Numbered from the stretch's first letter, positions 1 to 55,296 are shown. The stretch: DNA of 64,000 nucleotides from an uncultured Phycisphaerales bacterium (GCA_963841305.1 CAWJBR010000001.1:7598-71597); one strand, 5' to 3'. Program-made: numbers and translations. The notes: generated from the letters alone by a model not told the origin.

Positions 1-1
1 A

Positions 2-9389: not shown

Positions 9390-9665
9390 TAAAGCGGCAG
9401 AGCGAAGGCAAGAAATTCACGCCATGAACAAGTGTGTACTGGCGATTTGTGGCTGGGTGTCCCCTGTCCCTCCCGAAAACTCCCTCCGAGTCAGAACACG
9501 ATGACCGGCGCCCCCATACAAGTCATCACATCTGAGGATTTGAGCTATCGGCGAGTGAGGCGATATCCACTCGCGATGTGCAACACGCCGAGGCTTACCA
9601 CTGCTCAGGCGGCTCCTGATTGGTGGTGCAAGTCGCCATAATCGTGTAAGTCAGCCGGGTACGGT

Positions 9666-12530
9666 TCACTCACCGCTTCGGTTGTTGATCGCCCAGCGCA
9701 CCGTGTAGTTCGCGAGGCTGGCATTGGGGACCAGATGTACGCGGACGCCGGCGGGGGCTTGGACGCGGAGGGTCAGCTGCCGGCCGGTCTTGCGCCAGGA
9801 GCAGAAGACCGGACCACGGGCGCTGCCGACGGCGCCGCGGGCGTGGGTCAGGCCGTGGACCCAGGGGCTGACTCCGAAGGCCCGGCCGCCGGGCTCGCAC
9901 TGGCGGAGGCCCAGGATCAGGCGGTTGAGAAAATACAGCGGACCGGCCGACCAGGCATGGCAGTGGCTGCGGGTGGGGAAGGGCTTGGGGACGAAAGGGC
10001 TGCTGGGCAGGTGTTCCCAGACCGTGGTGGCGCCCTGCCGGAGCATGGGCGCGTAGTGCTGGCGAATGGCCTGCAGAATGGCATCCGGCTGGCCGGCCTG
10101 CTCGAGGGCTTCGAAGAGGAACTGCATGGCAAACGGCGAGCCGATGCGGGTCATGCCGGCGGGGGGATTCAACAGGTGGCTCAGCAGGGTCGGGCGATGT
10201 TCCGGGGGGGCGACGTCGTACAGCAAGGCCAGCAGGCTGGTGTGCTGGCAGCGTTTGGGGCTGGGCTTCCCATCAACATGGATACTGTCGGGATAAGCTC
10301 CGGTTGCCGGATCCCACTGACGATTGATTGAACCTTTAAGCTTTGTAATACAATCAGCAATCCAGCGGCCGTCGGCCTCGTGACCGAGCATCTCAGCCGC
10401 TTTCTGCGCCGCCTGCAAGGCCCCGACGAAAAACAGGCTGTTGTGCAGCACGGTGGGCGGTTCCTGATCGATGTCGGCCCAGTCAAACAAATTCCACTCC
10501 GCGGCGCTGAACAGGCCGTCCGGGTTGACGTAGCGCCAGGCGCCTTTGAGGTTTTTCAGCAGGGCCGGCCAGAGGGATTTCAGCAGCGGCTTGTCGCCGG
10601 TGTAGAAGTAGTATTCCCACGCCTGGATGCCCCACAGGAAGCTCCAGGCCGGCAGCAGGCAATTCCAGGCCGAGGGCACCTGGCAGCCGACCATGGGGAA
10701 GTGGTCCAGGGACTGGGCGCCCAGTTCCAGCGAGCGGCGGGAGACGTCGGTGTTGCCGAAGGTGTCGTAGGCGTAGAGGGCGGCGTTGCGGGCGTCGCCG
10801 ATCCACAGCGTCTGCTCGTACAGGGGACAATCGGTGAAGACGTCCTCCATACACAGTTGCAGCGTGCGGGCGGAGATTTGCCAGACCCTGGACAGAGTGG
10901 CATCGCTGCAGGTCAGCGGGCGGATCGCCTTCACCGGCGCGGTGGATTCGATCAGTCGCAGTTGGTGCAACTCCACCGCTTCCCTTGGGCCGCGGAGCGT
11001 GAGGAACAGATACCGCCCGGAGCGGCGTTTCAGGGAGGTGAAACGCTGGCGGCCCTGGCGGGTGATGTAGCGCAGGCCGTTGCGGTTGTCGGGATAGGAG
11101 TGCTGGACTTGGCCGTCGGGATTGATGTGCTCCACCAGGTGCAGATCCACGGTGACGCCGGCGGGGGCGGTGAGGGCGAATTCAAGGTAGCCCACGCGCT
11201 GCTGTCCGAGGTCGTAGCAGAGTTCGACGTCGCCGTCGGGAGCCGGATGCACCTTCACCGGTTTGTCGTTGCCTTGGCACGGGCCGGCAGCGTTGCGGAC
11301 CAGCCGGGCTGCGATTGCCCGCGGTTGGCGCTGGGCAAAATCGGCCGAGAAGTCCGGCAAAAACACCTGCTCGTCGGGCCGGTTCAACGCCAGCGGTTGC
11401 AGTGTGCGGCGGGCTTTCGCGGGATCCTGGCAGGTGCGGGCCAATTCCTGGATGGCCTGACGATACTCGGCCTCCACTTTCTTGGGCTGCGGGTTGTCCT
11501 GGCTGATCCACGGGCGGTCGATGCGGCTCAGCAGATAAGGGCGCAGGACAAAGACGACCCACGCGGAGTCGGCCTGTGGATCGTAGGGATGCATCCACCG
11601 GGCGTTGGGCAGGTGCAGGAAGGGGAAGGGCAGTTCCTTGCGATGGCCGTAAAATTCGTTGCAGAAGAACAGGGCCCGGTGTTGGCCGGGCTTCAGGCGA
11701 AAGCGCCCGTCGGGTTTGGTTTGACCATCGACGCTGGCGATCCAGTGCGGGGAATTGAAATCGAGAGTCTGTGCCCGGTTCAGTTGCAGGACCGAGGCCA
11801 GCCCCACGGGGCGGCTGGTGAAATAATTGGCCTCCATCAGACCGGGATGGGCCAGACGCGCGACCGGGACACATACCCGCGCCGGTTCCCGCCGGACGAT
11901 CGCTGCGCCGCGAAAGGCTGCGGGGGAGCAGGGGGTTTTCGCCAAAGGGGCCACGGGGCGTGGGGTCAGATTTTTCCAGGGGCCTCGATTGGCGGGAAAC
12001 AGTTCGACAGCCGGTTGAAAGTCTTGCGTGGATTCAAGTCGGGCGTCGTACAGTTCCGCCGGTTCCATCTGAATGCTGACCTTGGGAACCCACTGTTGCC
12101 AGGCGGGGGCGGGGGCGGCTTGCCAAGCCTTGTCGGTGCTGATGGACACCCAGCGTGAGTGGGTCTGCACGTCCAGTTGCGCCAGTAAACCGGCATGCTG
12201 GGGGATCTGGTGAAACGTGCCCACGCCGTAGTAGCGGGCGATGATGCGAAGGGTGTTTGAGCCGCGCTTCAGATGGGGCGTCAGGTCGTACTCGTCAAAG
12301 AGCCAGTGTTCGGGATACGCGCGGGCCGGCCCATCATTGATCCACCGGCCGTTGACCAGCAGGCGATAGCCGCTGTCGGCGGTGATGCGCAGGCGGGCCT
12401 GGCGAATGGCCGGCAGGGTGAACTGTCGCTGAAACAGCGCCGTCAGGTTGTAGTCGTGCGGATCCTGTCCGGCACACCATATCCACTGTGCGGTCAGACG
12501 GGGGGGGCGGGATGTTTTTCGGGTGGGCAT
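9666..12530 (-). CDS. GH78-like alpha-L-rhamnosidase
   Basis: 954 aa. The N-terminal WIWCAGQDPHDYN...FTLP region is typical of rhamnosidase N-domains. Six-hairpin motif FTDCPLYEQTLWIGDARNAALYAYDTFGN resembles the DCP.RE..GW.GD signature. The start lies 6 nt after the stop of the upstream GH5 gene. Confidence 0.7.
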   Translation of the reverse strand: MPTRKTSRPPRLTAQWIWCAGQDPHDYNLTALFQRQFTLPAIRQARLRITADSGYRLLVNGRWINDGPARAYPEHWLFDEYDLTPHLKRGSNTLRIIARYYGVGTFHQIPQHAGLLAQLDVQTHSRWVSISTDKAWQAAPAPAWQQWVPKVSIQMEPAELYDARLESTQDFQPAVELFPANRGPWKNLTPRPVAPLAKTPCSPAAFRGAAIVRREPARVCVPVARLAHPGLMEANYFTSRPVGLASVLQLNRAQTLDFNSPHWIASVDGQTKPDGRFRLKPGQHRALFFCNEFYGHRKELPFPFLHLPNARWMHPYDPQADSAWVVFVLRPYLLSRIDRPWISQDNPQPKKVEAEYRQAIQELARTCQDPAKARRTLQPLALNRPDEQVFLPDFSADFAQRQPRAIAARLVRNAAGPCQGNDKPVKVHPAPDGDVELCYDLGQQRVGYLEFALTAPAGVTVDLHLVEHINPDGQVQHSYPDNRNGLRYITRQGRQRFTSLKRRSGRYLFLTLRGPREAVELHQLRLIESTAPVKAIRPLTCSDATLSRVWQISARTLQLCMEDVFTDCPLYEQTLWIGDARNAALYAYDTFGNTDVSRRSLELGAQSLDHFPMVGCQVPSAWNCLLPAWSFLWGIQAWEYYFYTGDKPLLKSLWPALLKNLKGAWRYVNPDGLFSAAEWNLFDWADIDQEPPTVLHNSLFFVGALQAAQKAAEMLGHEADGRWIADCITKLKGSINRQWDPATGAYPDSIHVDGKPSPKRCQHTSLLALLYDVAPPEHRPTLLSHLLNPPAGMTRIGSPFAMQFLFEALEQAGQPDAILQAIRQHYAPMLRQGATTVWEHLPSSPFVPKPFPTRSHCHAWSAGPLYFLNRLILGLRQCEPGGRAFGVSPWVHGLTHARGAVGSARGPVFCSWRKTGRQLTLRVQAPAGVRVHLVPNASLANYTVRWAINNRSGE

Positions 12531-17571: not shown

Positions 17572-17648
17572 GGGTATGCGGATCGGATCGGATCGGGGTA
17601 TCATACCCGTTCCGAGGTTCGGGGGTGGATTTTCAGCCGGGAGTGACG

Positions 17649-19091
17649 ATGACGGATGACGGGAATGGCGCTGCCGTGGAACAAGGTCTTTCGATCCAGG
17701 CGCAAACCGCGGCCGATTCGCTTCCCCCTTTGTCCGCCGCCCGCAAAATTGGCTGGGGTGTCGGGGCTCTCACCGACGTGATCGTCAGCAACGCCTACGG
17801 CTATCTGGCCCTGCGGTTGTACACTGACGGCTTGCACATGCCCCTGAAGGTGCTGACGGCGGTGGCGATGCTGATGTGCATCCTCGACATGGTCGTCAGC
17901 ATGTCCGTGGCCAGCATCTCCGACAACCTCCGCACCCGCTGGGGCCGGCGAATGCCTTTCATCTTCGTCGGAACGGTTTTGTGCAGCGTGCTGTTCGTCT
18001 TCCTGTGGGGACCGCCCCGCGGCCTGTCGCCCTTCTGGGTTTGTGCCTATTTCATCGCCTTGTACATTCCCTACCAGATTGCCTACGCCGTCTTTACCGT
18101 TCCCTGGGGGGCGATGGGGCTGGAGCTCAGCCCCGACCTCCGCGATCGCAGCAGCGTCCAGACGTACAAGACGGTGATCCAGACCGTCGGCGGCATCGCC
18201 ATCGGCGGACTGTGGTGGATGGCGTTCTGGCTCGGTAGCGGCGATCGGGTGGCCGGGATGCGGTGGGTCAGCCTGCTGGTCGGTGCGTTCATCTGCATCG
18301 CCGGGCTGATTTCCGCTCTCAGCAGCCGGGAAAGGGCGCAAACCCGGACCTACCAGAAGGTCCCGTTCCTCCAGGCCATCTCCAGCACCTTCCGCAATGG
18401 CCAGTACCTGCTGGTGATCGGGTTCGTGTTCCTGGTGCTCGTCGGCCTGTTCCTGATCCAGCCGATGGCCTTTTTGATCAACGTCCACTACGTCTTCCAC
18501 GGCGACCGCAAACTTGAGGCGGAATTGGGCTTCTACATGAACCTGGTTTTCCAACTGGTCGGCGCCGCCCTGGCCCCGGGAGCGAACTGGCTGTGCCACC
18601 GGATCGGGAAGAAAAAGACGCTGTACGTGGGGCTGTCGCTGGTGGCCACGGGTTACGTCCTGAGCTGGTGGACGTACACGCCGGCCATGCCGTATTTGCA
18701 GATGGTGACGCTGGGGCTGTGTTCCCCCGGCTTGTCCTGCATGTGGATCGTGGCCCCGGCCATGATCGCCGACTTGTGCGAGCTGGACGAGAGGCGAACC
18801 GGAGCGCGCAAGGAAGGGATGTACTACGCGGTGTACTCCTGGGCGATCAAGATCGCCATCGTCGGTTCCTCCTGGCTCAGCGCCTTCATGGCCACCGGGG
18901 CGGGGTATCGCGAGGAGGTTCAACTGCTGAGTTCCGATGTGGTGGGCCGTCTCCGCCTGATGTACATGATCGTGCCGGCGACCTTTGCCGTGCTGGCGAT
19001 GCTCGTGGTGGCCGCCTACCCGCTGACGGAAAAACGCATGCGGCAGTTGCGGGAACAATGGGCGGTGCAAGGGCAGGAGGCTGGAGCATAG
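17649..19091 (+). CDS. GPH-family (MelB/XynP-like) glycoside-pentoside-hexuronide:cation symporter
   Basis: Only the 3' part of the 880-aa track ORF is real. Start at ATG 17649 (MTDDGNG...). About 12 hydrophobic segments. RWGRRMPFIFVG resembles the GPH signature. Confidence 0.75.
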   Translation: MTDDGNGAAVEQGLSIQAQTAADSLPPLSAARKIGWGVGALTDVIVSNAYGYLALRLYTDGLHMPLKVLTAVAMLMCILDMVVSMSVASISDNLRTRWGRRMPFIFVGTVLCSVLFVFLWGPPRGLSPFWVCAYFIALYIPYQIAYAVFTVPWGAMGLELSPDLRDRSSVQTYKTVIQTVGGIAIGGLWWMAFWLGSGDRVAGMRWVSLLVGAFICIAGLISALSSRERAQTRTYQKVPFLQAISSTFRNGQYLLVIGFVFLVLVGLFLIQPMAFLINVHYVFHGDRKLEAELGFYMNLVFQLVGAALAPGANWLCHRIGKKKTLYVGLSLVATGYVLSWWTYTPAMPYLQMVTLGLCSPGLSCMWIVAPAMIADLCELDERRTGARKEGMYYAVYSWAIKIAIVGSSWLSAFMATGAGYREEVQLLSSDVVGRLRLMYMIVPATFAVLAMLVVAAYPLTEKRMRQLREQWAVQGQEAGA

Positions 19092-19168: not shown

Positions 19169-20314
19169 ATGAATAACGGTTCGGTGCGATGGGTCGGCGT
19201 GGGGTTGGCGATGGTGTCGCTGGTCGGGTTGGCGCAAATGAGCGTTGCCGCCACGGCCGGCGTGGACAAAATGGCCCGCCCCTTTGGCGTCACCAGCGGC
19301 GGCCAGCAAGTCCAGCAATACATGCTGACCAACGCCAACGGCGCGAGCCTGAGGGTCATCACCTACGGGGCGACGATCACCAGCCTGTGTGTGCCCGACC
19401 GGAGCGGGAAAACCAGCGACGTCGTGCTGGGCTTTGACAACCTCAAGCAATACGAGCAGCAAAGCCCGTATTTCGGGTGCGTGGTGGGGCGGGTGGCCAA
19501 TCGCATCGCCAAGGGACGCTTCACCGTGGACGGCGTGAAGTACGCCGTGCCGGTGAACAACGGGCCGAACCACCTGCACGGCGGCCTGCAGGGCCTGGAC
19601 AAGCGGGTGTGGGCGGCGGAAGGCTTCATGGCCGCCGACGGCCCCAGCGTCCGCTTCACGATCCTGGACCCCGACGGGGCCGAGGGCTATCCGGGGAACC
19701 TGAAGATCACCCTGATCTACACCCTGACCGGCGGCAACGCGCTGAAGATCCAGTATTACGCCACGACCGACAAGGCCACGCCCATCAACCTGTCGCACCA
19801 CAGCTATTTCAACCTCAAGGACGCCGGCCAGAGCGACGTCCTGGAGCACGTGCTGACGGTGAACGCGGACTATTACACGCCGGTGGATGAGACGCTGATC
19901 CCCACCGGGGAGATTGCGCCGGTGAAGGCCACGCCCATTGATTTCACGACCCCTACGCCCATCGGGGCGCGGATCCGGCAGATGGGCGGCAACCCGGCGG
20001 GCTACGACCACAACCTGGTGCTGCGAAACCAGAGCGGCGAGCTGGCCAAGGCGGCCGAGGTGTACGAGCCGAACAGCGGGCGGGTGATGGAAGTCTGGAC
20101 CACCGAGCCGGGCGTGCAGTTTTACTCCGGCAACTTCCTGGACGGGAGCATCGAAGGCAAGGCGGGGGCGGTCTACAGGCAGTACCACGGGTTGTGCCTG
20201 GAGACGCAGCACTATCCGGATTCGGTGAACCAGCCGAAGTTCCCCAGGACGATCCTGCATCCGAGCGAGGTCTACCGGCAGGTCACCGAATACCGCTTCT
20301 CGGTGAGAAAATGA
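19169..20314 (+). CDS. galM: Aldose 1-epimerase (galactose mutarotase) with N-terminal signal peptide
   Basis: Motifs NNGPNHLHGG, EGYPGNL, NLSHHSYFNL, CLETQHYPDSVNQPKFP. Confidence 0.85.
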   Translation: MNNGSVRWVGVGLAMVSLVGLAQMSVAATAGVDKMARPFGVTSGGQQVQQYMLTNANGASLRVITYGATITSLCVPDRSGKTSDVVLGFDNLKQYEQQSPYFGCVVGRVANRIAKGRFTVDGVKYAVPVNNGPNHLHGGLQGLDKRVWAAEGFMAADGPSVRFTILDPDGAEGYPGNLKITLIYTLTGGNALKIQYYATTDKATPINLSHHSYFNLKDAGQSDVLEHVLTVNADYYTPVDETLIPTGEIAPVKATPIDFTTPTPIGARIRQMGGNPAGYDHNLVLRNQSGELAKAAEVYEPNSGRVMEVWTTEPGVQFYSGNFLDGSIEGKAGAVYRQYHGLCLETQHYPDSVNQPKFPRTILHPSEVYRQVTEYRFSVRK

Positions 20315-20459: not shown

Positions 20460-21410
20460 CTAGGAACCGAGCGGCAAACGCGCGGATTTTCGGAACGCCG
20501 CCGGCGACAGGCCCATCTTCTTCTTGAAAAACTGCGAAAAGTAATACACCGACTCAAAGCCCGACTCAGCGGCAATCTGCCCGACGGGCATCTGCGTATT
20601 GGCCAAAGCCAGCGAGGCCTTGCGGAGACGATGATGCAGTTGAAACTGCCGCGGCGAAAACCCGGTATAGTCCCGAAACATTCGGCGGAGCCACGTGTAG
20701 CTGACACTCAAGTCGCTCGCCAGGGCCGGCAGATCCACGTTGCACGTCACATCCTTAAGCAATTGCTCCTTGGCCCGGTTGATGATTCGTTCCGTGTCGT
20801 TGCCTTGATACTTCCGGCCACCACACGCCGCCAGCACCAGTGCGAGGATTCGCATGGCCGCGGCGCTCAGCAGATACTCCAGCCCGTATTGCTCCTGGAA
20901 TGCCATCTCGACCATCTCGGAAAAGAGTTGCACCACGGCGTCGTCCACCCCGACGTTTAGAACCGGACTGCCCGGGGTGAACTCTTTGCGTTTCAAAAAC
21001 CGCCGGGCGCAGACGCCGTCGAATTCGATCCAGTATTCATCCCATCCCGTCGCCGGGTCGGGCCGGTAGCGGTGCCATTCCCCCGGGAACAGCGTCATCA
21101 AGTCGCCGGCCCGAACCTCGATCCGCCCACACGAACGCGACTCAAACACGCCGCCGCCTCGGGTAATGTAAACCAGGGCCGGCGAATGCAGCGTCCGGCC
21201 GTGTTGCCAGGAGAGGCGGTGGTCCTGGGGATGCGCCGCCGGCGGATAAACGCAACCCGGCGGAATGCGCGAATAGCCCACGTTGAACACGTAAAAGCCC
21301 CAACGCTGCATGGAAACGTTAACAGGCAGGTAGCGAAACCGGGTCTGCGGGGTTGGGTGAAGAGGGTTGGCCATAAAACACAAATTTATGGTCAAAAACT
21401 GCATCGTCAA
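20460..21410 (-). CDS. AraC-family transcriptional regulator (cupin sensor plus HTH)
   Basis: C-terminal SVYYFSQFFKKKMGLSPAAFRK. N-terminal cupin-like region GDLMTLFPGEWHRY. Start is uncertain (TTG 21410, ATG 21404 or ATG 21374). Divergent from the URO-D-like gene at 21463. Confidence 0.8.
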   Translation of the reverse strand: MTMQFLTINLCFMANPLHPTPQTRFRYLPVNVSMQRWGFYVFNVGYSRIPPGCVYPPAAHPQDHRLSWQHGRTLHSPALVYITRGGGVFESRSCGRIEVRAGDLMTLFPGEWHRYRPDPATGWDEYWIEFDGVCARRFLKRKEFTPGSPVLNVGVDDAVVQLFSEMVEMAFQEQYGLEYLLSAAAMRILALVLAACGGRKYQGNDTERIINRAKEQLLKDVTCNVDLPALASDLSVSYTWLRRMFRDYTGFSPRQFQLHHRLRKASLALANTQMPVGQIAAESGFESVYYFSQFFKKKMGLSPAAFRKSARLPLGS

Positions 21411-21462: not shown

Positions 21463-22449
21463 ATGAATCACGTCGAACGCTTTCGCGCGGTCATGAACTT
21501 CCAGCCGGTGGATCGCCTGCCCATGTGGGAATGGGCCATGTGGTGGGACAAGACCATCGAACGGTGGAAAGGCGAGGGGCTGCCTGCCGAGCTGAACACG
21601 GTTTTCGACATCGCCCAGTACTTCGGGCTGGACCCTTACCAGCAGTTCTGGTTCAGCACCACCGAAGACACCATCGAAGCCGTCCAGCACCACGTCGAGG
21701 GCGTGGTGGCCAACATGGACGATTATCTGGCGTTGCGGCCGAAGATCTTCCCCCGGCACACCAAGGCCATCGAATCCATGGCCCCCTGGGCCGAGCGGCA
21801 GAAGCGGGGCGAGGCGGTGGTCTGGATCACCTTCGAAGGCTTCTTCTGGTTCCCGCGCACGCTGATGAACATCGAGCGGCAGATGCTGGCCTTCTACGAC
21901 GACCCGGAACTGATCCACCAGATCAACCAGGACCTTTGCGATTACCACGTCCGCATGTTGCAGAAGATCGCCAAGGTCTGCGTGCCCACGTTCATGACCT
22001 TCGCCGAAGACATGAGCTATAACCACGGACCGATGCTCTCCAAAGAATCGTTCGAAACGTTCCTGTTGCCGTACTATCGCAAGTTCCTGCCGCTGGTTCA
22101 GGAACTGGGCATTATCCCCATTGTGGATACGGACGGGGACGTAACCCAGATGGTGCCGTGGCTGCTGGATGCCGGAATCAAGGGCGTCCTGCCCTTGGAA
22201 CGTCAGGCAAACGTTGACGGCATGACCTTACGCAAGGCCTTCCCCAAGCTGGCGATGGTCGGCCACTATAACAAGCTGGTCATGAACCAGGGCGAACAGG
22301 CCATCCGCGAGGAGTTTGAACGGCTGGTGCCGCTGCAGAAGACCGGCGGCTTTATCCCCAGCGTGGATCATCAGACTCCGCCGGGCGTCTCCCTCGAGCA
22401 ATACCGCGGCTATCTCCGTTTGCTGCGGGAATACGTTCATCAGGTGTGA
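21463..22449 (+). CDS. URO-D superfamily (uroporphyrinogen decarboxylase / MtaA-like TIM barrel) protein, subtype lacking the H-x-C motif
   Basis: Motifs MNHVERFRAVMNFQPVDRLPMWEW, YDDPELIHQIN, DMSYNHGPMLSKESFETFLLPYYRKF. It has IVDTDGDV where MtaA-like enzymes carry H-x-C-G. Confidence 0.6.
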   Translation: MNHVERFRAVMNFQPVDRLPMWEWAMWWDKTIERWKGEGLPAELNTVFDIAQYFGLDPYQQFWFSTTEDTIEAVQHHVEGVVANMDDYLALRPKIFPRHTKAIESMAPWAERQKRGEAVVWITFEGFFWFPRTLMNIERQMLAFYDDPELIHQINQDLCDYHVRMLQKIAKVCVPTFMTFAEDMSYNHGPMLSKESFETFLLPYYRKFLPLVQELGIIPIVDTDGDVTQMVPWLLDAGIKGVLPLERQANVDGMTLRKAFPKLAMVGHYNKLVMNQGEQAIREEFERLVPLQKTGGFIPSVDHQTPPGVSLEQYRGYLRLLREYVHQV

Positions 22450-22578
22450 TAAACGGCATTTCCCGGAGATGTTGCCGAGGGATATTCTGCAGTCGGATGT
22501 TTCCTTGGGGGCGACCCTTGTGTTTTGGCCGGATCGGCTCAGAGCCGGCCGGATTGTTTTCGGCAGGCTTGGGGAGTC

Positions 22579-22960
22579 AGGCCGGTTGGACTGGCTGTCC
22601 ACTACGGCTTTGTCCCAGCCGATCCCCTTTTCCCGTCCCACTCGCTGGAGTAGTTCGCTCAGCAGTTTTTTCCAGATGCCACGGCGCTGCCAGTATCGCA
22701 GCCGTCGCCAACAGGTGACGCCCGATCCGCACCCCATTTCCGTCGGCAACATCCACCAAGGGATGCCTCCTTGCCGCGCGTCATGCCCAAGACAGTATAG
22801 GAGGCTATTTTTGAAACAGTTTCTAAGTCGCCGACTAAGTCGGGCGACCCGGTCGAGCGTCTTTTGCAGGCCCTGGCATCCGGGGAGAATTGCCCGGCTG
22901 GAGCCGTCGGCCCACCGCCCCACGACTCTCTCGCATCTGTTCCACTGGGAACTGGGCAAG
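22579..22960 (-). mobile_element. Decayed N-terminal fragment of an IS5-group transposase (DUF4096-type); no DDE domain
   Basis: The minus-strand translation reads ...GGIPWWMLPTEMGCGSGVTCWRRLRYWQRRGIWKKLLSELLQRVGREKGIGWDKAVVDSQSNRP. This matches the remembered I/VPWR.LP.E.G.GSG.TCWRRLR.W...GVW..L......IDWS.AVVDS pattern. It is embedded in a longer spurious ORF, and I found no inverted repeats. Confidence 0.55.
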
Positions 22961-23153
22961 AGTTTCCATACCGTGTAGATCGAACTGGCGATGGAGAAAG
23001 CCGGCGAATTCTTTCGCACCGTTCCCGGCATCCGTGTCAAAGTGCAAGAGAACAGTCAAATCGTCCATTTTCTTTTACCGAAAACAGACTACAACCACAA
23101 AAGCGTGGGAACGTTGTCGCTAATTTCCATGTAACCTGCACTATGGATGCCTT

Positions 23154-24251
23154 ATGGAACTGAAATCCAAACCCGATTTTGCCCAAGCCATGGGCCGAAT
23201 TGACGCCTGGTTCGCTCATGAATTGTTGGACCGGCCGCCAGTCCGGTTCTCGGAGCACAACGCGGAGTATTCCGGGGGGCCGGCGCTGGCCGGCCGAAGC
23301 TGGCCGGACCTGAAATCGCGCTGGTTCGACGCGGAATTTCAGGTGGACCAGTTCATCCAGTCCCTCCGCCACCGCACCTTTCACGGCGAGACCTTCCCGG
23401 TGTTCTGGCCCAACCTCGGCCCCAACGTCTACGCCGCCTTCCACGGTGCCGAACTGGACTACGGGGAAGTCACCTCCTGGGTTCGCCACTGCGTGGAGGA
23501 GTGGAGCGATATCCCGAAACTCCAATTCAGCCGGGACAACAGCTACTTCCGAAAGATCGAGGGGATGACCCGCCTGGCGCTGGAGAAGTGCGCCGGCCGC
23601 TACCTGGTCGGCTACACTGACCTGCACGGCAGCCTGGACTGCGCCGCCGACTGGCGCAACCCGCAGCAGTTGTGCCTCGATCTGGCGGACTGCCCGGAGA
23701 AGGTCCACGAGCTGGTCCGCCTGGCCGACGAAAGCTTCCTGCCGGTCTACGACCACTACGACGCCCTGCTCAAGGCCCACGGGCACTTGTCCGTCACGTG
23801 GATGGCCATCCCGTCCACGGGCAAGATGCACATCCCCAGTTGCGACTTCACCAACATGGTTTCCGAGCAGGTGTTCGACGAGTTCTACCTGCCTTCGCTG
23901 CTGCGGGAGGTGAAGCACATGACGCACAACGTCTTTCACCTGGACGGCAAGGGGATGCTGCGGCACCTCAACCGCCTTCTGGAGATTCCCGAAATCCAGG
24001 CCATCCAGTGGGTGCAGGGCGTGGGCGACGACGCGCCGATCCTGCAGTGGCTGCCGGTCATCAAGCGGATTCAGTCGGTCGGCAAGGGGGTGATCGTGGA
24101 TTTGCAGCTTGCCGAATTGGAGCCGTTCATGGAGGCGATGAACCCACGGGGACTGTACCTTTGCATCCCGGCGGCCGAGGATGTCCAGCCGGAGATCCTC
24201 AAGCGGCTGGAGGCGTGGTCCCGGCGGGCTACGGTCGGGTTCACCAAATAA
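23154..24251 (+). CDS. Divergent URO-D superfamily protein, subtype lacking the H-x-C motif
   Basis: Shares block order with the other three paralogs: LADCPEKVHELV (cf. DDPEL...), SCDFTNMVSEQVFDEFYLPSLLREV, NVFHLDGKGMLRHLNRLLE. An 11-nt gap to the downstream GH36-like gene suggests co-transcription. Confidence 0.45.
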   Translation: MELKSKPDFAQAMGRIDAWFAHELLDRPPVRFSEHNAEYSGGPALAGRSWPDLKSRWFDAEFQVDQFIQSLRHRTFHGETFPVFWPNLGPNVYAAFHGAELDYGEVTSWVRHCVEEWSDIPKLQFSRDNSYFRKIEGMTRLALEKCAGRYLVGYTDLHGSLDCAADWRNPQQLCLDLADCPEKVHELVRLADESFLPVYDHYDALLKAHGHLSVTWMAIPSTGKMHIPSCDFTNMVSEQVFDEFYLPSLLREVKHMTHNVFHLDGKGMLRHLNRLLEIPEIQAIQWVQGVGDDAPILQWLPVIKRIQSVGKGVIVDLQLAELEPFMEAMNPRGLYLCIPAAEDVQPEILKRLEAWSRRATVGFTK

Positions 24252-24261
24252 AAAGTGAGGA

Positions 24262-26346
24262 ATGAAGCAAGCGCGAGGCTATCTACTCTGGATAATCATG
24301 ATGAATTCAACTGTTACCTCTTGTGCGCAATCGGCAACTCAGACTCCGCCATCCCTGGTCAACCTCAACGCCAGTCTGGGCGGCGCGACGGTTCGAGGCG
24401 AGAAGAATGGGATTGTTGTTTCCACCGGCCGCTTCGAGCGGACCTGGCGCTGGACCGGCAAAGGGCTGGTGACGGTGTCCCTGCGCGACTTGTCCAGCGG
24501 AACCAACTGGATCACTCATCAGCCGACGAGGCAGTGCGATTGGGATTTGCCGGGAGCCATCGACGATAACAGTGATGCGGAACTGGTTTCCACGGCGGTG
24601 ACGGTGGATGATGACGAGGGGTTCACCGGCAAACACCTCCAGGTCATTTCCTCGATCCGCTATCCGGCGGCGAAACTGGAGGTGCGGCACGTGGTATGGG
24701 TCTTCCCCGGTGCCCCCGGTGTGCGGACGCAGCTCCGGGTCAAAGCCATTCCCGGATTCGACCCGAAGGGGCTGCCGGAAGGCGAATCGACCCACGGCGA
24801 GTATGGTGCGACGTTTCTCAAGTCCAGCGCGCGTTCGGAATACCTGCCGCTGAACTTCGCGGTAGCCAACGAGCGGCTTTACTGGGGCTACTACAATGAT
24901 CCGGGCAACCGGCATGACCAGAGCCAGGACATGCTCCGGGAGCAGACGGTGAAAGGCTGGCCGATTTTCCTGCGGGAGGACATCGACTGGGCCAACGGCG
25001 TGGCGGTCAAGTACGGCCAGGCCGGCGTGATCGTGGTCAAGGAGTCCCCCAAGTGCGTCAATCAGAAGGGGCACAACACCGGCGCGTTTTACGCCAATCC
25101 CGCGGGGCTGGCGGCGACCGGCTGGGGGCTGACGCCGGCGGAAATCCTCCCTGATCGCTTCCGGGAATGCTGGGCGAACTGGACCATCGTGTTTCAAGGC
25201 GGCGACGACGGCGTGCAACTGGCGTTGAAGCAGTTTGAAGCCATCCGCTATCCCGTCTTCCCCGACCGCGACATGTTCATCCTGTCCAACACGTGGGGGC
25301 CGGCCGATCCCTATGGCAATCAATTCACCAGTGAGGAATTTGTGCTGAAGGAGATTCCGGCGCTGGCGGAGTTGGGCGTCGATGTGCTGCAGATTGACGA
25401 CGGCTGGCAGAAGAGCGGTCTCGGACCCGACGCTCAGGGCTTTTTGCCCAAGTATTCCGACGGCTGGTCAGCCATCAAGGCCGCCGCCGAAAAGGCGGGG
25501 GTGCGGCTGGGGCTGTGGGTTGCCATCCGCAACGCCAACATCGACGATCTGCGATACGACCTGGACCAGTTGGGATTTGTCACCTGGAAGGCCGATTTTG
25601 AGCGTCTGGCTAATCGGACCGATTACGAGCAGCGCATCGCCAGCTTCCGGCAAGTGATGAAGCATGCGTGGATGAAAACGCAATTCACGCTTTGCCCCGA
25701 ATACGACGACCCCCGCTACGGCTGGTATTTCGCCAAGGAATACGGCAGCATCTATTTCCAGAACATCCAGGAGGGGCTTCCACCGCACCTGACGATGGTG
25801 CCTTTTCAGGTGCTGCGCCAGCACTGGCTGATGGCCAAATACTTCCCGGCCAACAAGCTGCAGGTGTTGTTGCAGAATCCCAAACGCGTGCGGACGGACA
25901 TCAGCGATGCCCATCGGCACGGCCACGGCTACTGCTTCGCCATGGGCTTGCCGTTTGTGCCCTGTTTCTTCCAAAGCGCGCAGTTCCTGGACGAGGCGGG
26001 CCGAAGGGAAATCAAAAGCCTGATCCGGCTGTTTAAGGCGCATCGGGAAAAGATCTTCACCAGTTGCACCTTCCCCATCGGCGATCTGCCCGACAATGCC
26101 AGTTGGAGTGGATTCCAAATGCTCAGCCCGGATGGCCGGCAGGGGCATCTGCTGATCTTCCGGGAACTGCACAACCGGCAGCCGCGGCGCACAATCGGCT
26201 TGAAATTCCTGGCCGGAAAGACGATCCTGTTGGAGGATTTGCAAAGCGGTGAAAAATGGCAGACGCAGGTGTCGGAAAACGGCCTGATTGAGTTGGAAAT
26301 CCCGGATGCGCCGGGGTACCGATTCCTGAGCTATGCAATGCCGTGA
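24262..26346 (+). CDS. GH36/GH27-clan alpha-galactosidase-like glycoside hydrolase
   Basis: Motifs FILSNTWGP, VDVLQIDDGWQKSG, VRLGLWVA, VTWKADFE (candidate K-x-D nucleophile motif). Confidence 0.6.
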   Translation: MKQARGYLLWIIMMNSTVTSCAQSATQTPPSLVNLNASLGGATVRGEKNGIVVSTGRFERTWRWTGKGLVTVSLRDLSSGTNWITHQPTRQCDWDLPGAIDDNSDAELVSTAVTVDDDEGFTGKHLQVISSIRYPAAKLEVRHVVWVFPGAPGVRTQLRVKAIPGFDPKGLPEGESTHGEYGATFLKSSARSEYLPLNFAVANERLYWGYYNDPGNRHDQSQDMLREQTVKGWPIFLREDIDWANGVAVKYGQAGVIVVKESPKCVNQKGHNTGAFYANPAGLAATGWGLTPAEILPDRFRECWANWTIVFQGGDDGVQLALKQFEAIRYPVFPDRDMFILSNTWGPADPYGNQFTSEEFVLKEIPALAELGVDVLQIDDGWQKSGLGPDAQGFLPKYSDGWSAIKAAAEKAGVRLGLWVAIRNANIDDLRYDLDQLGFVTWKADFERLANRTDYEQRIASFRQVMKHAWMKTQFTLCPEYDDPRYGWYFAKEYGSIYFQNIQEGLPPHLTMVPFQVLRQHWLMAKYFPANKLQVLLQNPKRVRTDISDAHRHGHGYCFAMGLPFVPCFFQSAQFLDEAGRREIKSLIRLFKAHREKIFTSCTFPIGDLPDNASWSGFQMLSPDGRQGHLLIFRELHNRQPRRTIGLKFLAGKTILLEDLQSGEKWQTQVSENGLIELEIPDAPGYRFLSYAMP

Positions 26347-26387
26347 ACGATGTAAGTAACCGTCAGGGTGGGAATAGCGAGAAACCT

Positions 26388-26726
26388 ATGAAACGCTACA
26401 GCATGGTCATTGAGATCAGGGCCGAGAAAGTTGAAGAGTGCAAAAAGCTGCATGCGACGGCTTGGCCGGCGGTGCGGAAGACGATCACCGCCTGCCACAT
26501 CCGCAACTACTCCATCTATCTGTGTAAGCTGCCTGACGGGAGACATTATCTATTCGGCTACCTGGAGTACACCGGCAATGATTTCGCCGCGGACATAGCC
26601 AGAATGTCGGCCGATCCGATCACCCAGGAGTGGTGGGACGTCTGCGAACAGTGCCAGGTGCCGCACCCCAACCGCCCTAAAAGCGCATGGTGGGCCGAGA
26701 CGCAGGAAATATTTCATCAGGATTAG
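26388..26726 (+). CDS. rhaM: L-rhamnose mutarotase
   Basis: 112 aa from ATG 26388. MKRYSMVIEIRAEKVEECKKLHATAWPAV...IRNYSIYL...WWDVC...EIFH is collinear with the RhaM/YiiL family. Confidence 0.8.
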   Translation: MKRYSMVIEIRAEKVEECKKLHATAWPAVRKTITACHIRNYSIYLCKLPDGRHYLFGYLEYTGNDFAADIARMSADPITQEWWDVCEQCQVPHPNRPKSAWWAETQEIFHQD

Positions 26727-26737
26727 GCTCTGATCGC

Positions 26738-27730
26738 TCAACGTTTGCGAAATTGCAGGGGGGACATTCCTAAATACCGTTTGAATGTCCTGGAAAAATA
26801 ATATTGGTCCTCATACCCCACCTCCCGGGCGATGTCCTGCACCCGGCGGTCATTTTTGGTCAACAATTGGCAGGCTTTTTGGATCCGCATGCGGTTGAAG
26901 TAGTCCACGGGCGGACAACCAAAGTTGTCGCGGAAGGCATCGCCGAATCGGTTGGGGGACATGCAGGCCAATTGCGCCAGCTCCTCCAGGCGGATGGGAT
27001 TGCCAAGGTTCTGCCTCATGAACTCAATCACTCGTTCCAACCTCTCCCGGACCTGATGGGCCTGGGCACTGATGGACTGGGCGCCTTTCGCCAGCCCATA
27101 CAGCAAACCGATGCAGGACATGGAAGCGGTGATCAGATTTTCGCTGGTATGGCCGACCTGCATGGATGAATAAATCCGCTCGAATGCCGCCAGAACATCC
27201 ACCGCGTCGGGCAGGTGGATCAGCGGGGCATTGGGCTTGACGTTCAGGAAATCAAAGTAGTGGCCGGCCTGCGCCCCGGTGAAGTGGATCCAGTAGACGG
27301 ACCAGGGATCTTCGGCATCGGCGCCGTAGGCATGGGGCTGGCCGCGGGGGATCAGCAAAGCCGTTCCCGTCGGAACCACCCATCGGGTGTCCCTGATTTG
27401 CAGCCAACCCTTGCCCTCGGCGCAATAGTGAATGATGTGGTCCTGGCTTCCCTCGGGTTGGGGGAGGTAATGCCCGGCGGCTTTGTGATAATAGCCGATG
27501 CGGGTCACCAGCAGGTCGCGCAACAATGGCTGTTGCAAAGACTTGTGAACAACATCCGGGGGCAGAACGATCGACCGCGTTTCCGCGGAGCCGCCGCGGC
27601 TCATGGCGTTGCGGATGTCGCGGACATCGCCTGGGCTGAGGGCCTGGTAATCGTACCCGGCCGACTGCAGGACGTCCCGGATGGTTCTGCCCGATGGCGT
27701 GCGGATCAGATCAAAGGGTTCGGTGGCCAT
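26738..27730 (-). CDS. AraC-family transcriptional regulator (cupin plus HTH)
   Basis: C-terminal GYEDQYYFSRTFKRYLGMSPLQFRKR. Cupin-like region ALLIPRGQPHAYGA. Convergent with rhaM and divergent from the PEP-CTERM gene. Confidence 0.8.
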   Translation of the reverse strand: MATEPFDLIRTPSGRTIRDVLQSAGYDYQALSPGDVRDIRNAMSRGGSAETRSIVLPPDVVHKSLQQPLLRDLLVTRIGYYHKAAGHYLPQPEGSQDHIIHYCAEGKGWLQIRDTRWVVPTGTALLIPRGQPHAYGADAEDPWSVYWIHFTGAQAGHYFDFLNVKPNAPLIHLPDAVDVLAAFERIYSSMQVGHTSENLITASMSCIGLLYGLAKGAQSISAQAHQVRERLERVIEFMRQNLGNPIRLEELAQLACMSPNRFGDAFRDNFGCPPVDYFNRMRIQKACQLLTKNDRRVQDIAREVGYEDQYYFSRTFKRYLGMSPLQFRKR

Positions 27731-28043
27731 TCTACCTCTAGTGCCAAAGCCGACTTGCTTCCGGGAAACGATGGGGATATATTACAAATCCAATCGTTTC
27801 CTCTGCGGGAAAAGCCGAAAAGACCGGTGATGAATATACCGTCTGTGTCGGCTGGGGCAAGTTTGATGGCGGTGAGAAAGTCCATCAAAAAAAAATTATA
27901 GTCTATGGTCTCCCGCCTGAATCGGAATTACATTTCAACGTGAAAATGGCTTGGGTTTAGCCATAGGGTGTTTTTGGGCCTCAAGCCGGTTTTTGGGTCT
28001 ATCGGTCGGGAGTTCGTCAAACATTTCACTTTTCGGAGGAGCT

Positions 28044-31000
28044 ATGGTTCGCAAGTCAAGCAATCGGAAGAGCAACAAGCGGGGTCAACTGCTGCTGGCG
28101 ACGGCGGCGGCGGGCGTGGGGATTCTGGGCCTGTTCCAGTCGGTCCAGGCGGCATCCTCAACCTATACTTGGAGCAACAGCGGGACTGGGACATGGGACA
28201 CGACCGCCACCAACTGGCCCGGCGGCACTAACCCGTGGACCAGCGCCAACGGCTCATCCAGCATCGCTGACTTCAACACCGCCAGCGCTACCGCCACCGT
28301 CAGCGCAAACGTGTACACCAACGGTATTATCCTTGACAATACCGCCACCATCTCCGGCGGGACGATCAACTTCGTCGGCTCTGCGGCCACTATCGACGTC
28401 AAGAATGCCGCCAGTGGCAGCACGATCAGCAGTGACATAACAAACAGCTTAGTGAACTTGAAGATCACCAACTCAAGCAGCACGCCCAATTCGACGATCA
28501 ACATGGGCAACTTCGTCAATCCGACGACGGCGGGGGTTACCACCACGATTGACAGCGGCGTAACGGTTAAGATGGTATCGGGGAAAACATTCTCTAACGC
28601 GAGAGGGGGGCTCGTTCTCAACGGAACTCTGAACTTGAATTCATCCGCAGCTAACTCAATCGTATTCAATAGTGGGATACTTGCTGGCGGAACGGGTTCC
28701 ATCATTAACAGCGGTACCGCGCCTAGTAACGGCGCTTACAATGTTAAATTGGGTGGTTCAAGTACTTTTGGTGGTACCATTGGAGAAAATGTCACGCTCA
28801 ATTTAAATAGCTGTTATTTTGATTTTTCAGGGGACAATCAGTCCACCAAAATGTGGCAGTTGCTTGGAACCTTTCGTATTTCCAATGCCAACGCATGGAA
28901 GACGACGTCAAAAGGCACATTTCGGGGGGCGGGAGGCACGCTTGAGTTGGCTTCCGCTGATTTGCGAATAAACAGTACTAATTTCGCGTTATCGGACGGA
29001 GGGACTTCAGTTACTAGTGTCGGTTTTGCCGCCCTTAATGGGGATCGTACAGTAACGTGGACGGGGACCAGTACGGCCTCTGACGCGCCGGCGGCTACAT
29101 TCACTTGGGGGAATGGAATTTCCGTTACTTTATTCGACAAACTGGTTTTGGGGAATGCCAACGCCACTAACAAGATCATCTGGGCCAGCCCTATTGATTT
29201 GGGAGGAACGACTAACACTACCCGCCAGATATCTGTTGTTGATAACGCTAACGGGGCGGGCGGGGAAATCAGCGGTGCCATCAGCGATAGCAATGCTACC
29301 AAGCGAACGTTGGAAAAGGTAGGTACGGGAACGCTGATCCTCAGCGGAAACAACACTTATCAGGGCCCGACTAAGATCACCACCGGCACGCTGGTGGCCG
29401 ACCATGCCAACGCATTAGGCAATGGAGGAACCATCACCTTCAGCGGCGGTACGCTTCAGTACACCGCCAACAGCGCCGGGCAGGACTGGGCCAGCCGTAT
29501 CAAGAACAGCGGCTCGGCCATCGTCCTCGACACCCAGGCCAATGCCGTCACCCTCGGCGCCTTGGATAGCACCAACACCGCCGGCCTGACCAAGCTGGGC
29601 ACCGGCCGCTTGAACTTGACCGGAACCAACGGGTATACCGGCACAACCACCGTCTCCGCCGGCACCCTCAGCGTCAACGGCTCCCTGGCCAGCGCCAACG
29701 TCTACGTCAACAACTCCGGCACCCTCGGCGGCACCGGCACCCTCAGCGGCGCCGTCAGCGTCGCCTCCGGCGGTCACCTCGCCCCCGGCAACTCCATCGG
29801 CACCCAAACCCAGGCCAGCCTCACCCTCGCCAGCGGCTCGATCCTCGACTTCCAGTTCGGCACCGCCGGCACCCTGGCCAGCCCCGGCAACAGCGACCGC
29901 ATCGCCGTCACCGGCGCCCTGACGTTGCCCACCAACGCCAGCGGCATCACCCTCAATGTCATCGACAACCTCAACGACGCCGGCAAAGGCAACATCGACA
30001 AGGGCGTCTACAGCCTCTTCACCTACGGCAGCCTCGTCGGCGGCAACAGTGACTTCAACAAAACCTTCGCCATCGGCACCACCCCCACCAACTTCGGCAC
30101 CACCGCCGAAACCGGCAACAAGAAGTACGTCTTCACCAACACCGGCTTGAACGGCGGCACGATCTTCCTGACCATCAGCGACAACTCCTCCCTCGCCGCC
30201 ACCACCTACACCCTGGCCGCCAGCGCCGACAAGAGCCGCATCCTCACCGGCCAGACCGCCACCGTCACCGCCGCCATCAACAACACCGGCACCTTGGGCA
30301 CCAACGACGCCCTGAACTACTCCGGCCTGAACCTCAGCGGCGGCGGCGGCTCCTTCAGCGGCGCCGGCCTGCCCAAGTCCAACGGCTCCCTGGGCGGCGG
30401 CTCCAACGACTCCGGCTCCCTGACCTTCACCGGCGGCTCCATCGGTCTGCAAACCATCAACGCCACCGTCGCCTCGGCTACCAACGCCACCCTGGGCGGC
30501 AACGCCACCAAGACCGGCGACACCGCCGTGCAGATTGCCGTGCTGGACAAGCGGCAGATCAGCGCCCAGGACGTGGTTCTGGGTCGGGTGATGGCCGGAC
30601 GCAACCTCAACACCCTGGCGGCCCAGAGCGTGACGCTGAACAGCCAGGCCGGCGACCACAACAGCCTGACGGACGTACAGGTGAACAACGGCCACGGCGG
30701 GTCGGTGACCTTCACCGATGCCACCGCCAGCAAGAGCCTCTCGGGCGTCACCGGCCAGAACGCCACCGTCGCCACCAGCGGCACCTTCGCCAGCCTGAAC
30801 GTGAACACTCTGGAAAGCGGCCTGGGCGACACCTACAACAACGTCGCCGTCGGCTATACCGCCTCGGTCTTCAACCCCATCGAGATGATCGCCAACAACA
30901 GCACCGGCGGGTACAACGCCTTCAACAGCGGCAGCAACACGGTGCAGGTCAGCGGCTCCAACGGCAACTACGTTTTCGCCACCGCCACCCACACCGGCGG

Positions 31001-31439
31001 AACCAACCAGGCGTACGTCAACGTGCAGACGCCAAGCGACTTTACCGCCCCCGAATATGTGCTGCTGGCCTTGAACGGGGTGTCGGGCCTGAGCCAGACC
31101 CTCGCGGTGGATGTGGCCAACGCCATCAACGCCGCGGGCCTCAGCGGCGTCCACGCCACCTACAACGGCGAAGACCTGGCGACCAACAAGATGCTGGCCG
31201 ACTGGTCCGGCTACAGCGCCTACAAAGGCACGGACATCGGCGACTTCGACGTGCTGGTGAAGTTCGACAGCTACAGCGCCGCCAACGGCGTCCTGGCCTT
31301 CGACTTCAGCCAGATCGACGGCGGAGCCGCCTCCGTCTCGGCCATCGGCGTGGTGCCGGAACCCACGAGCCTGGGCCTGATGGCCCTGCCGGCCCTGGGC
31401 CTGCTGGCCCGCCGCCGCCGGGCGATGAAGAAAGCCTGA
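28044..31439 (+). CDS. Large secreted surface protein with autotransporter-associated beta-strand (PATR) repeats and a C-terminal PEP-CTERM sorting signal
   Basis: Start at ATG 28044 with SD GGAGGA. Signal peptide MVRKSSNRKSNKRGQLLLATAAAGVGILGLFQSVQA. PATR-like units: KVGTGTLILSGNNTYQGPTKITTGTL and TKLGTGRLNLTGTNGYTGTTTVSAGTL. C-terminus VVPEPTSLGLMALPALGLLARRRR. Confidence 0.85.
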   Translation: MVRKSSNRKSNKRGQLLLATAAAGVGILGLFQSVQAASSTYTWSNSGTGTWDTTATNWPGGTNPWTSANGSSSIADFNTASATATVSANVYTNGIILDNTATISGGTINFVGSAATIDVKNAASGSTISSDITNSLVNLKITNSSSTPNSTINMGNFVNPTTAGVTTTIDSGVTVKMVSGKTFSNARGGLVLNGTLNLNSSAANSIVFNSGILAGGTGSIINSGTAPSNGAYNVKLGGSSTFGGTIGENVTLNLNSCYFDFSGDNQSTKMWQLLGTFRISNANAWKTTSKGTFRGAGGTLELASADLRINSTNFALSDGGTSVTSVGFAALNGDRTVTWTGTSTASDAPAATFTWGNGISVTLFDKLVLGNANATNKIIWASPIDLGGTTNTTRQISVVDNANGAGGEISGAISDSNATKRTLEKVGTGTLILSGNNTYQGPTKITTGTLVADHANALGNGGTITFSGGTLQYTANSAGQDWASRIKNSGSAIVLDTQANAVTLGALDSTNTAGLTKLGTGRLNLTGTNGYTGTTTVSAGTLSVNGSLASANVYVNNSGTLGGTGTLSGAVSVASGGHLAPGNSIGTQTQASLTLASGSILDFQFGTAGTLASPGNSDRIAVTGALTLPTNASGITLNVIDNLNDAGKGNIDKGVYSLFTYGSLVGGNSDFNKTFAIGTTPTNFGTTAETGNKKYVFTNTGLNGGTIFLTISDNSSLAATTYTLAASADKSRILTGQTATVTAAINNTGTLGTNDALNYSGLNLSGGGGSFSGAGLPKSNGSLGGGSNDSGSLTFTGGSIGLQTINATVASATNATLGGNATKTGDTAVQIAVLDKRQISAQDVVLGRVMAGRNLNTLAAQSVTLNSQAGDHNSLTDVQVNNGHGGSVTFTDATASKSLSGVTGQNATVATSGTFASLNVNTLESGLGDTYNNVAVGYTASVFNPIEMIANNSTGGYNAFNSGSNTVQVSGSNGNYVFATATHTGGTNQAYVNVQTPSDFTAPEYVLLALNGVSGLSQTLAVDVANAINAAGLSGVHATYNGEDLATNKMLADWSGYSAYKGTDIGDFDVLVKFDSYSAANGVLAFDFSQIDGGAASVSAIGVVPEPTSLGLMALPALGLLARRRRAMKKA

Positions 31440-55283: not shown

Positions 55284-55296
55284 AAGGGACAAGACC

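Follow-up and report, generated by a model that had tools for sequence, protein, structure and literature searches.

Two URO-D-fold proteins of a Phycisphaerales sugar locus as candidate corrinoid-dependent demethylases of methylated sugars

Background

What do proteins with the fold of uroporphyrinogen decarboxylase (URO-D) do among genes for sugar utilization? The question is raised by a stretch of 64,000 nucleotides (nt) from an uncultured Phycisphaerales bacterium (the window, from whose start positions are counted; coordinates with the prefixes C1 and C2 are those of the host assembly). It encodes two such proteins, P1 (21463..22449) and P2 (23154..24251), as well as a remote GH36-like glycosidase, P3 (24262..26346), and a mutarotase of the RhaM family. 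A preliminary description of the window had noticed that P1 and P2 carry D-T-D-G and H-L-D-G where MtaA-type enzymes carry H-x-C-G, and had proposed that the two form a pair with a different, possibly metal-independent chemistry. The reading that we favour is that both are corrinoid-dependent O-demethylases of methylated sugars, of a rhamnose-type sugar in the case of P1 and of a galactose-type sugar in the case of P2, to which we give a probability of about one half. Corrinoid-dependent methyl transfer as such we consider probable; the two sugars named are tentative choices, with the odds somewhat against them.

Glycans of plants, mosses, algae and bacteria often contain methylated sugars, in which the methyl group blocks ordinary catabolism. 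Examples are 2-O- and 3-O-methyl-rhamnose, 3-O- and 6-O-methyl-galactose, 2-O-methyl-fucose and 2-O-methyl-xylose. A search of the literature on URO-D enzymes or corrinoid O-demethylases in connection with sugars, GH106, rhamnose or polysaccharide loci returned no description, and no paper describing the P1 or P2 family was found, in agreement with the earlier remark that the function of such proteins in glycan loci is undescribed. As far as found, a corrinoid-dependent sugar demethylase has not been described before.

Fold, family and active-site motif of P1 and P2

P1 matches the URO-D family PF01208 with 56.7 bits, over its C-terminal half only, and P2 has no match in Pfam or NCBIfam. AlphaFold models of both proteins were built from 21-sequence alignments and compared with the PDB using Foldseek. 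The top matches of the P1 model (pLDDT 88) are HemE and MtaA, with a TM score of about 0.7 and a best E-value of 1.5e-12, and its lower-ranked matches are generic TIM barrels with a TM score of 0.45 or less, including uronate isomerase and tagatose epimerase. For the P2 model (pLDDT 75, best E-value 6.7e-9) all 24 matches with E<=3.5e-5 are HemE or MtaA and the next one follows at 2e-3. Considering the fact that the strong matches are exclusively of this kind, P2 is a URO-D-fold protein that the sequence models overlook. The claim that the window holds two homologs of the superfamily thus stands for P1 on the basis of PF01208, and for P2 not by Pfam or NCBIfam but by its predicted fold alone. 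The open reading frame (ORF) coordinates, the spacings of 11 and 42 nt further downstream and the motifs were all as first given.

Sequence and profile searches of the PDB with P1 found nothing, and the P2 profile retrieved a single, marginal match, CdmB (E 0.11). The profiles of the two families show no detectable similarity to each other (hhalign probability 2.3%), so that a common ancestry of P1 and P2 has to be read from the fold only. Both families are very large and unusually conserved: we found more than 6000 homologues of P1, the best 120 of which, from Planctomycetota, Sumerlaeota, Hydrogenedentota and others, share 70-81% identity with it, and more than 2300 homologues of P2 (69-80% identity, from Verrucomicrobiota, Terriglobia and others). 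Each family is 70-80% identical across phyla.

The position of the motifs was analyzed in a MAFFT alignment of P1 and P2 with four MtaA-type paralogs of the host genome and one from another locus (L043). D-T-D-G and H-L-D-G share their columns with the H-S-C-G and H-C-C-G of these paralogs, as had been proposed, with the Gly as the sole invariant residue. The distal position is occupied by D302/H303 in P1 and by the invariant C337 in P2. On the basis of the alignment and of the strand ends in the models, the putative metal-site residues would be D222, D224, E246 and D302/H303 in P1 and H262, D264 and C337 in P2. Direct reading of the sequences gave no signal peptide for either protein, and both are predicted to be cytoplasmic.

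Given the Pfam name of PF01208, one might take P1 and P2 for uroporphyrinogen decarboxylases or for another enzyme of the tetrapyrrole pathway. This name is all that speaks for such a role, which we hold to be hardly conceivable. P1 scores 18.7 bits on the HemE model TIGR01464 (cut-off 302.95) and 21.7 bits on the MtaA/CmuA model TIGR01463 (cut-off 235.4), P2 matches neither of them, and the NCBIfam scores amount to 18-22 bits at cut-offs of 235-600. The N-terminal substrate-binding motif of HemE is of the R-Q-A-G-R type; a motif of that type was not found in P1, the N-terminus of which reads DRLPMWEWAMWWD, nor in P2, which reads DRPPVRFSEHN. Moreover, the host assembly (3.98 Mb in 4 contigs, 95% complete) has 23 PF01208 paralogs, which sit in sugar loci and all of which stay below the hemE cut-off. 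The best PF01208 match of the host (C2:99348-100394, 223.6 bits) was considered as HemE and rejected, as it carries H-I-C-G and scores 178 bits on the MtaA/CmuA model versus 81 bits on the hemE model (cut-off 303). Since it is MtaA-like and not HemE, the host genome is without a recognisable HemE. P1 and P2 belong neither with HemE nor with the classical MtaA enzymes of the His-Cys-Cys type, and at the level of profiles their separation from HemE and from MtaA/CmuA is upheld.

The loss of H-x-C has precedents. O-directed methyltransferases of the UroD superfamily have exchanged one Cys ligand or both for Glu/Asp or for residues that do not coordinate (PMC10418091). The superfamily includes the O-demethylase MT1 enzymes MtvB, OdmB, VdmB and MtoB, and contains zinc-free MT1 enzymes, namely MtvB and the halomethane enzyme CdmB, the closest structural neighbour of which is human UroD (PMC13222342). 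Given these published Cys-to-carboxylate and zinc-free sites, a non-H-x-C motif is a known mark of O-directed corrinoid methyltransferases and not of corrinoid-independent chemistry.

Relatives of P1 and P2 in corrinoid methyltransferase clusters

Relatives that share the motifs of P1 and P2 were found inside canonical corrinoid methyltransferase clusters. The clearest arrangement is that of a locus from the same phylum (L168), in which a corrinoid protein gene (8664-9293) is followed by a P1-family gene (9359-10393) and then by genes for RACo, a 225-amino-acid (aa) ORF, MTHFR, a Pterin_bind methyltransferase and an amidohydrolase, all of them verified with Pfam. The P1-family protein is 45% identical to P1, carries D-S-D-G and retains every invariant P1 residue. 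This is the standard layout of a corrinoid-dependent demethylase operon, in which the place of MT1 is here taken by the P1-family gene. A second genome (L169/L170) combines a P1-family gene (51% identity) with a P2-like gene in a stretch of about 35 kb, where Pterin_bind, MTHFR, a corrinoid protein and RACo are encoded too. In yet another locus (L104) a P1 orthologue of 72% identity starts 4 nt past a homocysteine S-methyltransferase gene and closes an operon that also holds RACo, a corrinoid protein, MTHFR, Pterin_bind and FTHFS. For P2 two such loci were recovered, one from the Acidobacteriota (L029: AraC, corrinoid protein, MtaB, P2, PhyH, URO-D, galactokinase, mutarotase) and one from the Cyclobacteriaceae (L072: P2, MtaB, corrinoid protein, RACo, CobW).

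The frequency of such arrangements was determined in 80 genome loci centred on P2 and in 80 metagenome loci centred on P1. A corrinoid protein lies within 10 kb of P2 in 3 of the 80 loci versus 0.36 expected (p=0.006), and MtaB is near P2 in 2 loci versus 0.08 expected (p=0.003). A corrinoid gene within 10 kb of P1 occurs in 1 locus, which is not significant alone.

At the level of genomes the association is strong. We sampled 201 genomes of the same phylum, the host genome included, and counted as a small corrinoid ORF any frame of at most 300 aa; the counts of these ORFs are lower bounds, taken from among the matches listed, and the p-values ignore phylogeny. P1 orthologues are present in 15 of the genomes, from 10 families, and at least 12 of these 15 have a small corrinoid ORF, versus at least 17 of the 186 without a P1 orthologue (p=3e-9). 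None of the 200 genomes sampled has a true P2 orthologue (>700 bits), for which reason the wider P2-like family was used: at least 15 of the 28 genomes with a P2-like gene have a small corrinoid ORF, versus at least 14 of the 173 without (p=7e-8). P1 and P2-like genes occur together in 14 of 15 genomes (p=4e-13). Among 49 genomes that hold P2 itself, about 42 contain a small B12-binding_2 ORF and 15 contain MtaB.

The latter number, which compares with 1 of 14 controls, bears on another possibility, namely an MtaB/MtaC-type system in which P2, and perhaps also P1, serves as second methyltransferase and not as the sugar-specific demethylase. Its part would then be to load a non-thiol acceptor with the methyl group that the corrinoid protein carries, or else the system would operate in the opposite direction. 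The Acidobacteriota and Cyclobacteriaceae loci fit this idea, as P2 holds the expected place of MtaA there, beside MtaB and the corrinoid protein. Nevertheless, 34 of the 49 P2-holding genomes show no MtaB, the usual neighbours of P2 are on the substrate side (glycosidases, a porter, galactokinase), as one would expect for a substrate-specific MT1, and the MtaB cluster of the host already has an H-C-C-G URO-D partner of its own. A role as second methyltransferase therefore seems improbable to us.

Gene neighbourhoods of the two families

The commonest neighbour of P1 is a GH106 alpha-L-rhamnosidase (PF17132, 610 bits), which adjoins it on the same strand in 20 of the 80 loci, at times with overlapping stop and start codons, and which is adjacent in both closest relatives (80-81% identity). 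A divergent AraC gene similar to that of the host lies upstream of P1 orthologues in 5 of the 80. P2 is found near a GH36/GH27-like gene in 27 of the 80 loci, often at a distance of 22-165 nt, near a Sugar_tr porter in 18, near an H-S-C-G-type URO-D paralog in 14 and near a galactokinase in 6, versus 0.24 expected (p=2e-7); LacI regulators recur as well. The closest relative of P2 retains the order regulator, P2, P3 orthologue and NPCBM protein, and the P2-P3 order is retained in L022 and in the contig of P0124. The proposed association with glycosidases is thus conserved elsewhere, for each gene separately.

The idea of a P1/P2 pair does not survive this comparison: in none of the 160 loci does an orthologue of the other family lie beside P1 or P2, and the pairing is an accident of the host genome. 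RhaM is likewise absent from all 160 neighbourhoods.

A gene for a PhyH-family Fe(II)/2-oxoglutarate dioxygenase was observed near P2 in 4 of the 80 loci (L029:11547-12404, L072:7653-8486, L035 and L041) and in one metagenome contig, that of P0124. It could represent an oxygen-dependent alternative or a companion step.

Corrinoid genes and URO-D paralogs of the host

The preliminary description had noted that no corrinoid context is present in the window and had taken this, together with the missing H-x-C, as a sign of different chemistry. The observation itself is correct, as none of the six B12-binding matches of the host genome falls inside the window. The conclusion drawn from it does not hold at the level of the families. 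A search of the rest of the genome recovered a small corrinoid protein and two genes for RACo-type activators (C1:602442-604148 and C2:236074-238062), besides a DUF1638-like gene. The corrinoid protein, the only small one of the host, is MtaC-like, combines B12-binding_2 and B12-binding (C2:213382-214011) and lies between the genes for MtaB (552 bits) and for an H-C-C-G URO-D protein. A CFeSP/ACS-like cluster was also seen, read from N-terminal sequences only. Together with the motif-sharing relatives in corrinoid clusters, the co-occurrence of both families with small corrinoid proteins and the exchange of Cys ligands in O-directed enzymes (PMC10418091, PMC13222342), these findings leave the step to a different, possibly metal-independent chemistry unsupported.

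The host has 25 URO-D-fold genes in total, consisting of the 23 PF01208 matches and two copies of the P2 family. The second of these copies (C2:2329134-2330198) is 74% identical to P2 and is isolated amid housekeeping genes, in convergent orientation with an S-adenosylhomocysteine-hydrolase-like gene. Several further loci of the host were recorded in passing. The genes at C2:212235-216698 form a canonical-looking cluster in a non-methanogen (AraC, MtaB, the MtaC-like corrinoid protein and H-C-C-G URO-D), close to which a further URO-D gene with H-S-C-G and a sugar porter are found (C2:205163-207879). What looks, by N-terminal sequences only, like parts of a Wood-Ljungdahl-type methyl branch lies at C2:234491-242827 and comprises a homocysteine-methyltransferase-like gene and RACo as well as an AcsC-like corrinoid Fe-S protein and an ACS/CODH-like ORF of 1160 aa. 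The host furthermore contains about 20 GH106 genes (35 PF17132 matches), two of them in the window (1-2506 and about 39880-42108), a number that amounts to a striking specialisation on rhamnose-containing glycans.

Organization of the locus

The features of the locus are, in order:

17601..19091, plus strand: GPH/MFS_2 glycoside transporter, upstream context (PF13347, 190.9 bits)
19169..20314, plus strand: aldose 1-epimerase of the galactose mutarotase type, upstream context (PF01263, 323 bits)
20460..21410, minus strand: AraC-family regulator, divergent from P1 (Pfam AraC_binding and HTH_18)
21463..22449, plus strand: P1, URO-D-fold protein of 328 aa with D-T-D-G motif (PF01208, 56.7 bits)
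22450..23153, minus strand: decayed IS4/IS5-type transposase fragment between P1 and P2 (DUF4096)
22506..22552, plus strand: two terminator-like hairpins just 3' of P1 (consensus scan)
23154..24251, plus strand: P2, URO-D-fold protein of 365 aa with H-L-D-G motif (predicted fold)
24262..26346, plus strand: P3, remote GH36-like glycosidase of 694 aa (family profile versus PDB)
26388..26726, plus strand: RhaM-family mutarotase (PF05336, 88.6 bits)
26738..27730, minus strand: second AraC-family regulator, convergent on the end of the operon (Pfam)

The stop codon of P2 and the ATG of P3 are 11 nt apart, and 42 nt separate the stop codon of P3 from the ATG of rhaM at 26388. The longest rhaM ORF opens at a GTG at 26343; given that the Pfam match begins at residue 18 of this longer ORF, the ATG is the likely start. 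The spacer of around 700 nt between P1 and P2 is of a different nature. A minus-strand ORF (22228..23040) matches DUF4096 there with an E-value of 8e-7, which is below the Pfam cut-off, and the terminator-like hairpins are located 57-100 nt past the end of P1; as the overall number of hairpins is below chance expectation, they are suggestive by position only. Because the insertion sequence (IS) relic and the hairpins divide P1 from P2, co-transcription is plausible only for P2, P3 and rhaM, which may form one transcript to which P1 would not belong. Considering the fact that a GH106 gene usually follows P1 in its relatives, the relic may also mark a rearrangement that removed this gene.

P3 itself has no match in Pfam or NCBIfam. 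The profile of its family retrieves GH36/GH27 alpha-galactosidases only from the PDB, with an E-value of about 1e-3 across the DDGW region. The motifs IDDGWQ and WKAD are invariant within the family, and some homologues are positive for PF02065 (Melibiase) or possess an NPCBM module. P3 probably has an N-terminal signal peptide. The rhaM product belongs to PF05336 (88.6 bits, cut-off 23.4) and stays below the cut-off of the equivalog model TIGR02625 (39.9 versus 99.6 bits). In the host genome four RhaM-family genes were observed (C2:27281-27637, C2:30950-31279, C2:450350-450700 and 26388-26726 of the window), all four within 4 kb of a URO-D-fold gene; the probability of this closeness arising by chance is about 5e-6, or about 1e-4 when only three independent islands are counted.

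Two other regions of the window were noted. A second URO-D pair (58876-59937 and 59940-60953), in which both members carry H-S-C-G, is flanked by a GH95-like gene (52963-55083), a GH38 gene (55186-58746) and a Sugar_tr porter (61013-62395), after which comes a GH2-like gene (the range of this observation ends at 62398). Position 27951-31439 encodes a repeat-rich protein of 1162 aa which, as read from the translation, has a signal peptide and a C-terminal PEP-CTERM-like signal (VPEPTSLGL...RRRR).

Proposed pathway and weighing of the readings

We propose the following route, in which the transfer of the methyl group, the corrinoid protein as partner and the sugars themselves are the parts that we infer. 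A glycosidase, a GH106 alpha-L-rhamnosidase for the P1 family and the GH36-like P3 for P2, would free a methylated sugar or glycoside, which would then be imported into the cell. There the URO-D-fold enzyme would bind the methyl sugar as an MT1, with a carboxylate-rich site in place of the His-Cys-Cys zinc site of MtaA, and would present the methoxy group to a Co(I) corrinoid protein encoded in trans, presumably that at C2:213382-214011, with the RACo-type activators keeping the latter active by re-reduction. The methyl group might enter one-carbon (C1) metabolism via the H-x-C URO-D proteins, MetH or CFeSP/ACS, which is the least clear step, and the demethylated rhamnose- or galactose-type sugar would follow ordinary catabolism via mutarotase and kinase/isomerase. 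The ties of P1 to GH106, together with those of RhaM and rhaA in the host, point to methyl-rhamnose; for P2, the company of GH36/27, galactokinase and galactose mutarotase suggests methyl-galactose or else methylated alpha-galactosides.

Several points weigh against corrinoid-dependent demethylation. The all-carboxylate site of P1 (Asp-x-Asp) exceeds what PMC10418091 and PMC13222342 describe. A corrinoid gene within 10 kb is found for just the 3 P2 and the 1 P1 loci, the window lacks one altogether, and most family members stand beside glycosidases or alone, for instance in Anammoximicrobium. The host has one small corrinoid protein for its 25 URO-D-fold genes, and a stand-alone pterin-binding methyltransferase was not found in its genome. 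Finally, common descent, or a common life as anaerobic degraders of glycans, could account for the genome-level association in place of function.

An alternative is that P1 and P2 are corrinoid-independent metalloenzymes, in which the carboxylate/His site holds a hard divalent metal and a different step is catalysed on the freed sugar: its isomerisation or epimerisation, for instance, the decarboxylation of a uronic acid, or the direct cleavage of an ether or glycoside. The fact that about 95% of the loci are without a nearby corrinoid gene, and yet are tightly linked to GH106, GH36/27, a porter and galactokinase, is what one would expect in that case. An Asp-x-Asp...Glu...Asp/His array at strand ends would, moreover, be typical of metal-dependent TIM-barrel sugar enzymes, uronate isomerase and tagatose epimerase are among the lower Foldseek matches, and the families are found in lineages usually considered aerobic (Acidobacteriaceae, Cyclobacteriaceae). 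These lower matches are, however, generic TIM barrels, motif-identical relatives lie between a corrinoid protein and RACo, and the association with small corrinoid proteins at the genome level is strong. Neither is a new rhamnose isomerase needed: the host has a canonical though interrupted rhaA (C2:192860-194106), for which reason P1 as a novel enzyme of this kind was down-weighted. This rhaA is split across two frames or contains an in-frame TGA, and it adjoins a URO-D paralog (C2:191660-192271). On balance we consider the metalloenzyme alternative rather unlikely. Slightly less likely again is its specific form, a URO-D barrel that was rebuilt around a carboxylate-ligated metal and acts on rhamnose- and galactose-type sugars by a reaction so far unknown, for instance by breaking a methyl ether directly or by another modification; if true, new classes of enzyme would have to be defined, as partners of GH106 and GH36 glycosidases in many phyla. 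In a less radical variant, likewise undescribed, P2, a corrinoid protein and an MtaB homologue would together constitute a self-contained methyl-ether hydrolase that sets the methyl group of the sugar free as methanol.

Should P1 and P2 indeed be corrinoid-dependent sugar demethylases, they would show a way in which anaerobic glycan degraders handle methyl ethers, polysaccharide breakdown would be tied to C1 metabolism and to B12 demand, and thousands of proteins that are mis-named 'uroporphyrinogen decarboxylase family' or called hypothetical would obtain a function. As each family is tied to a defined type of glycosidase, candidate substrates can be picked directly.

Comparison with known systems

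P1 and P2 have the fold in common with HemE, and P1 also PF01208, but the HemE motifs are absent and the context is that of sugars; cofactor-free tetrapyrrole decarboxylation by these proteins is implausible. The same fold is shared with MtaA, MtbA and MtsA (TIGR01463; PDB 4ay7/4ay8), at a TM score of 0.6-0.7, and the motif follows the same strand. However, His-Cys-Cys has become Asp-x-Asp...Asp/His in P1 and His-x-Asp...Cys in P2, the Hidden Markov Model scores are far under the cut-offs, and the logic of a thiol acceptor is missing.

The O-demethylase MT1 enzymes (MtvB, OdmB, VdmB, MtoB, and CdmB with PDB entry 9rui) resemble P1 and P2 in having a URO-D-type TIM barrel in which the zinc site is altered or absent, in the gene order around relatives (first a corrinoid protein, then the MT1, a RACo activator and a pterin-binding MT2), and in the many substrate-specific paralogs per genome. 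Nevertheless, the similarity in sequence is undetectable or, for CdmB, marginal, and the known substrates of these enzymes are methoxylated aromatics or halomethanes, in contrast to the sugars proposed here. The partner genes of P1 and P2 are mostly glycosidases and transporters, with the corrinoid genes located elsewhere, and their hosts are glycan degraders of the Planctomycetes-Verrucomicrobia-Chlamydiae (PVC) group, Acidobacteriota and Bacteroidota, whereas those of the O-demethylases are acetogens or methanogens.

With respect to function, a counterpart is the cytochrome P450 6-O-methyl-D-galactose demethylase of marine Bacteroidota, which strips a methyl ether from a glycan-derived sugar and is encoded in glycan loci. 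To our knowledge such O2-dependent P450 enzymes are the only sugar demethylases known. Their reaction is oxidative and requires O2, and both fold and cofactor are unrelated to those of the URO-D enzymes.

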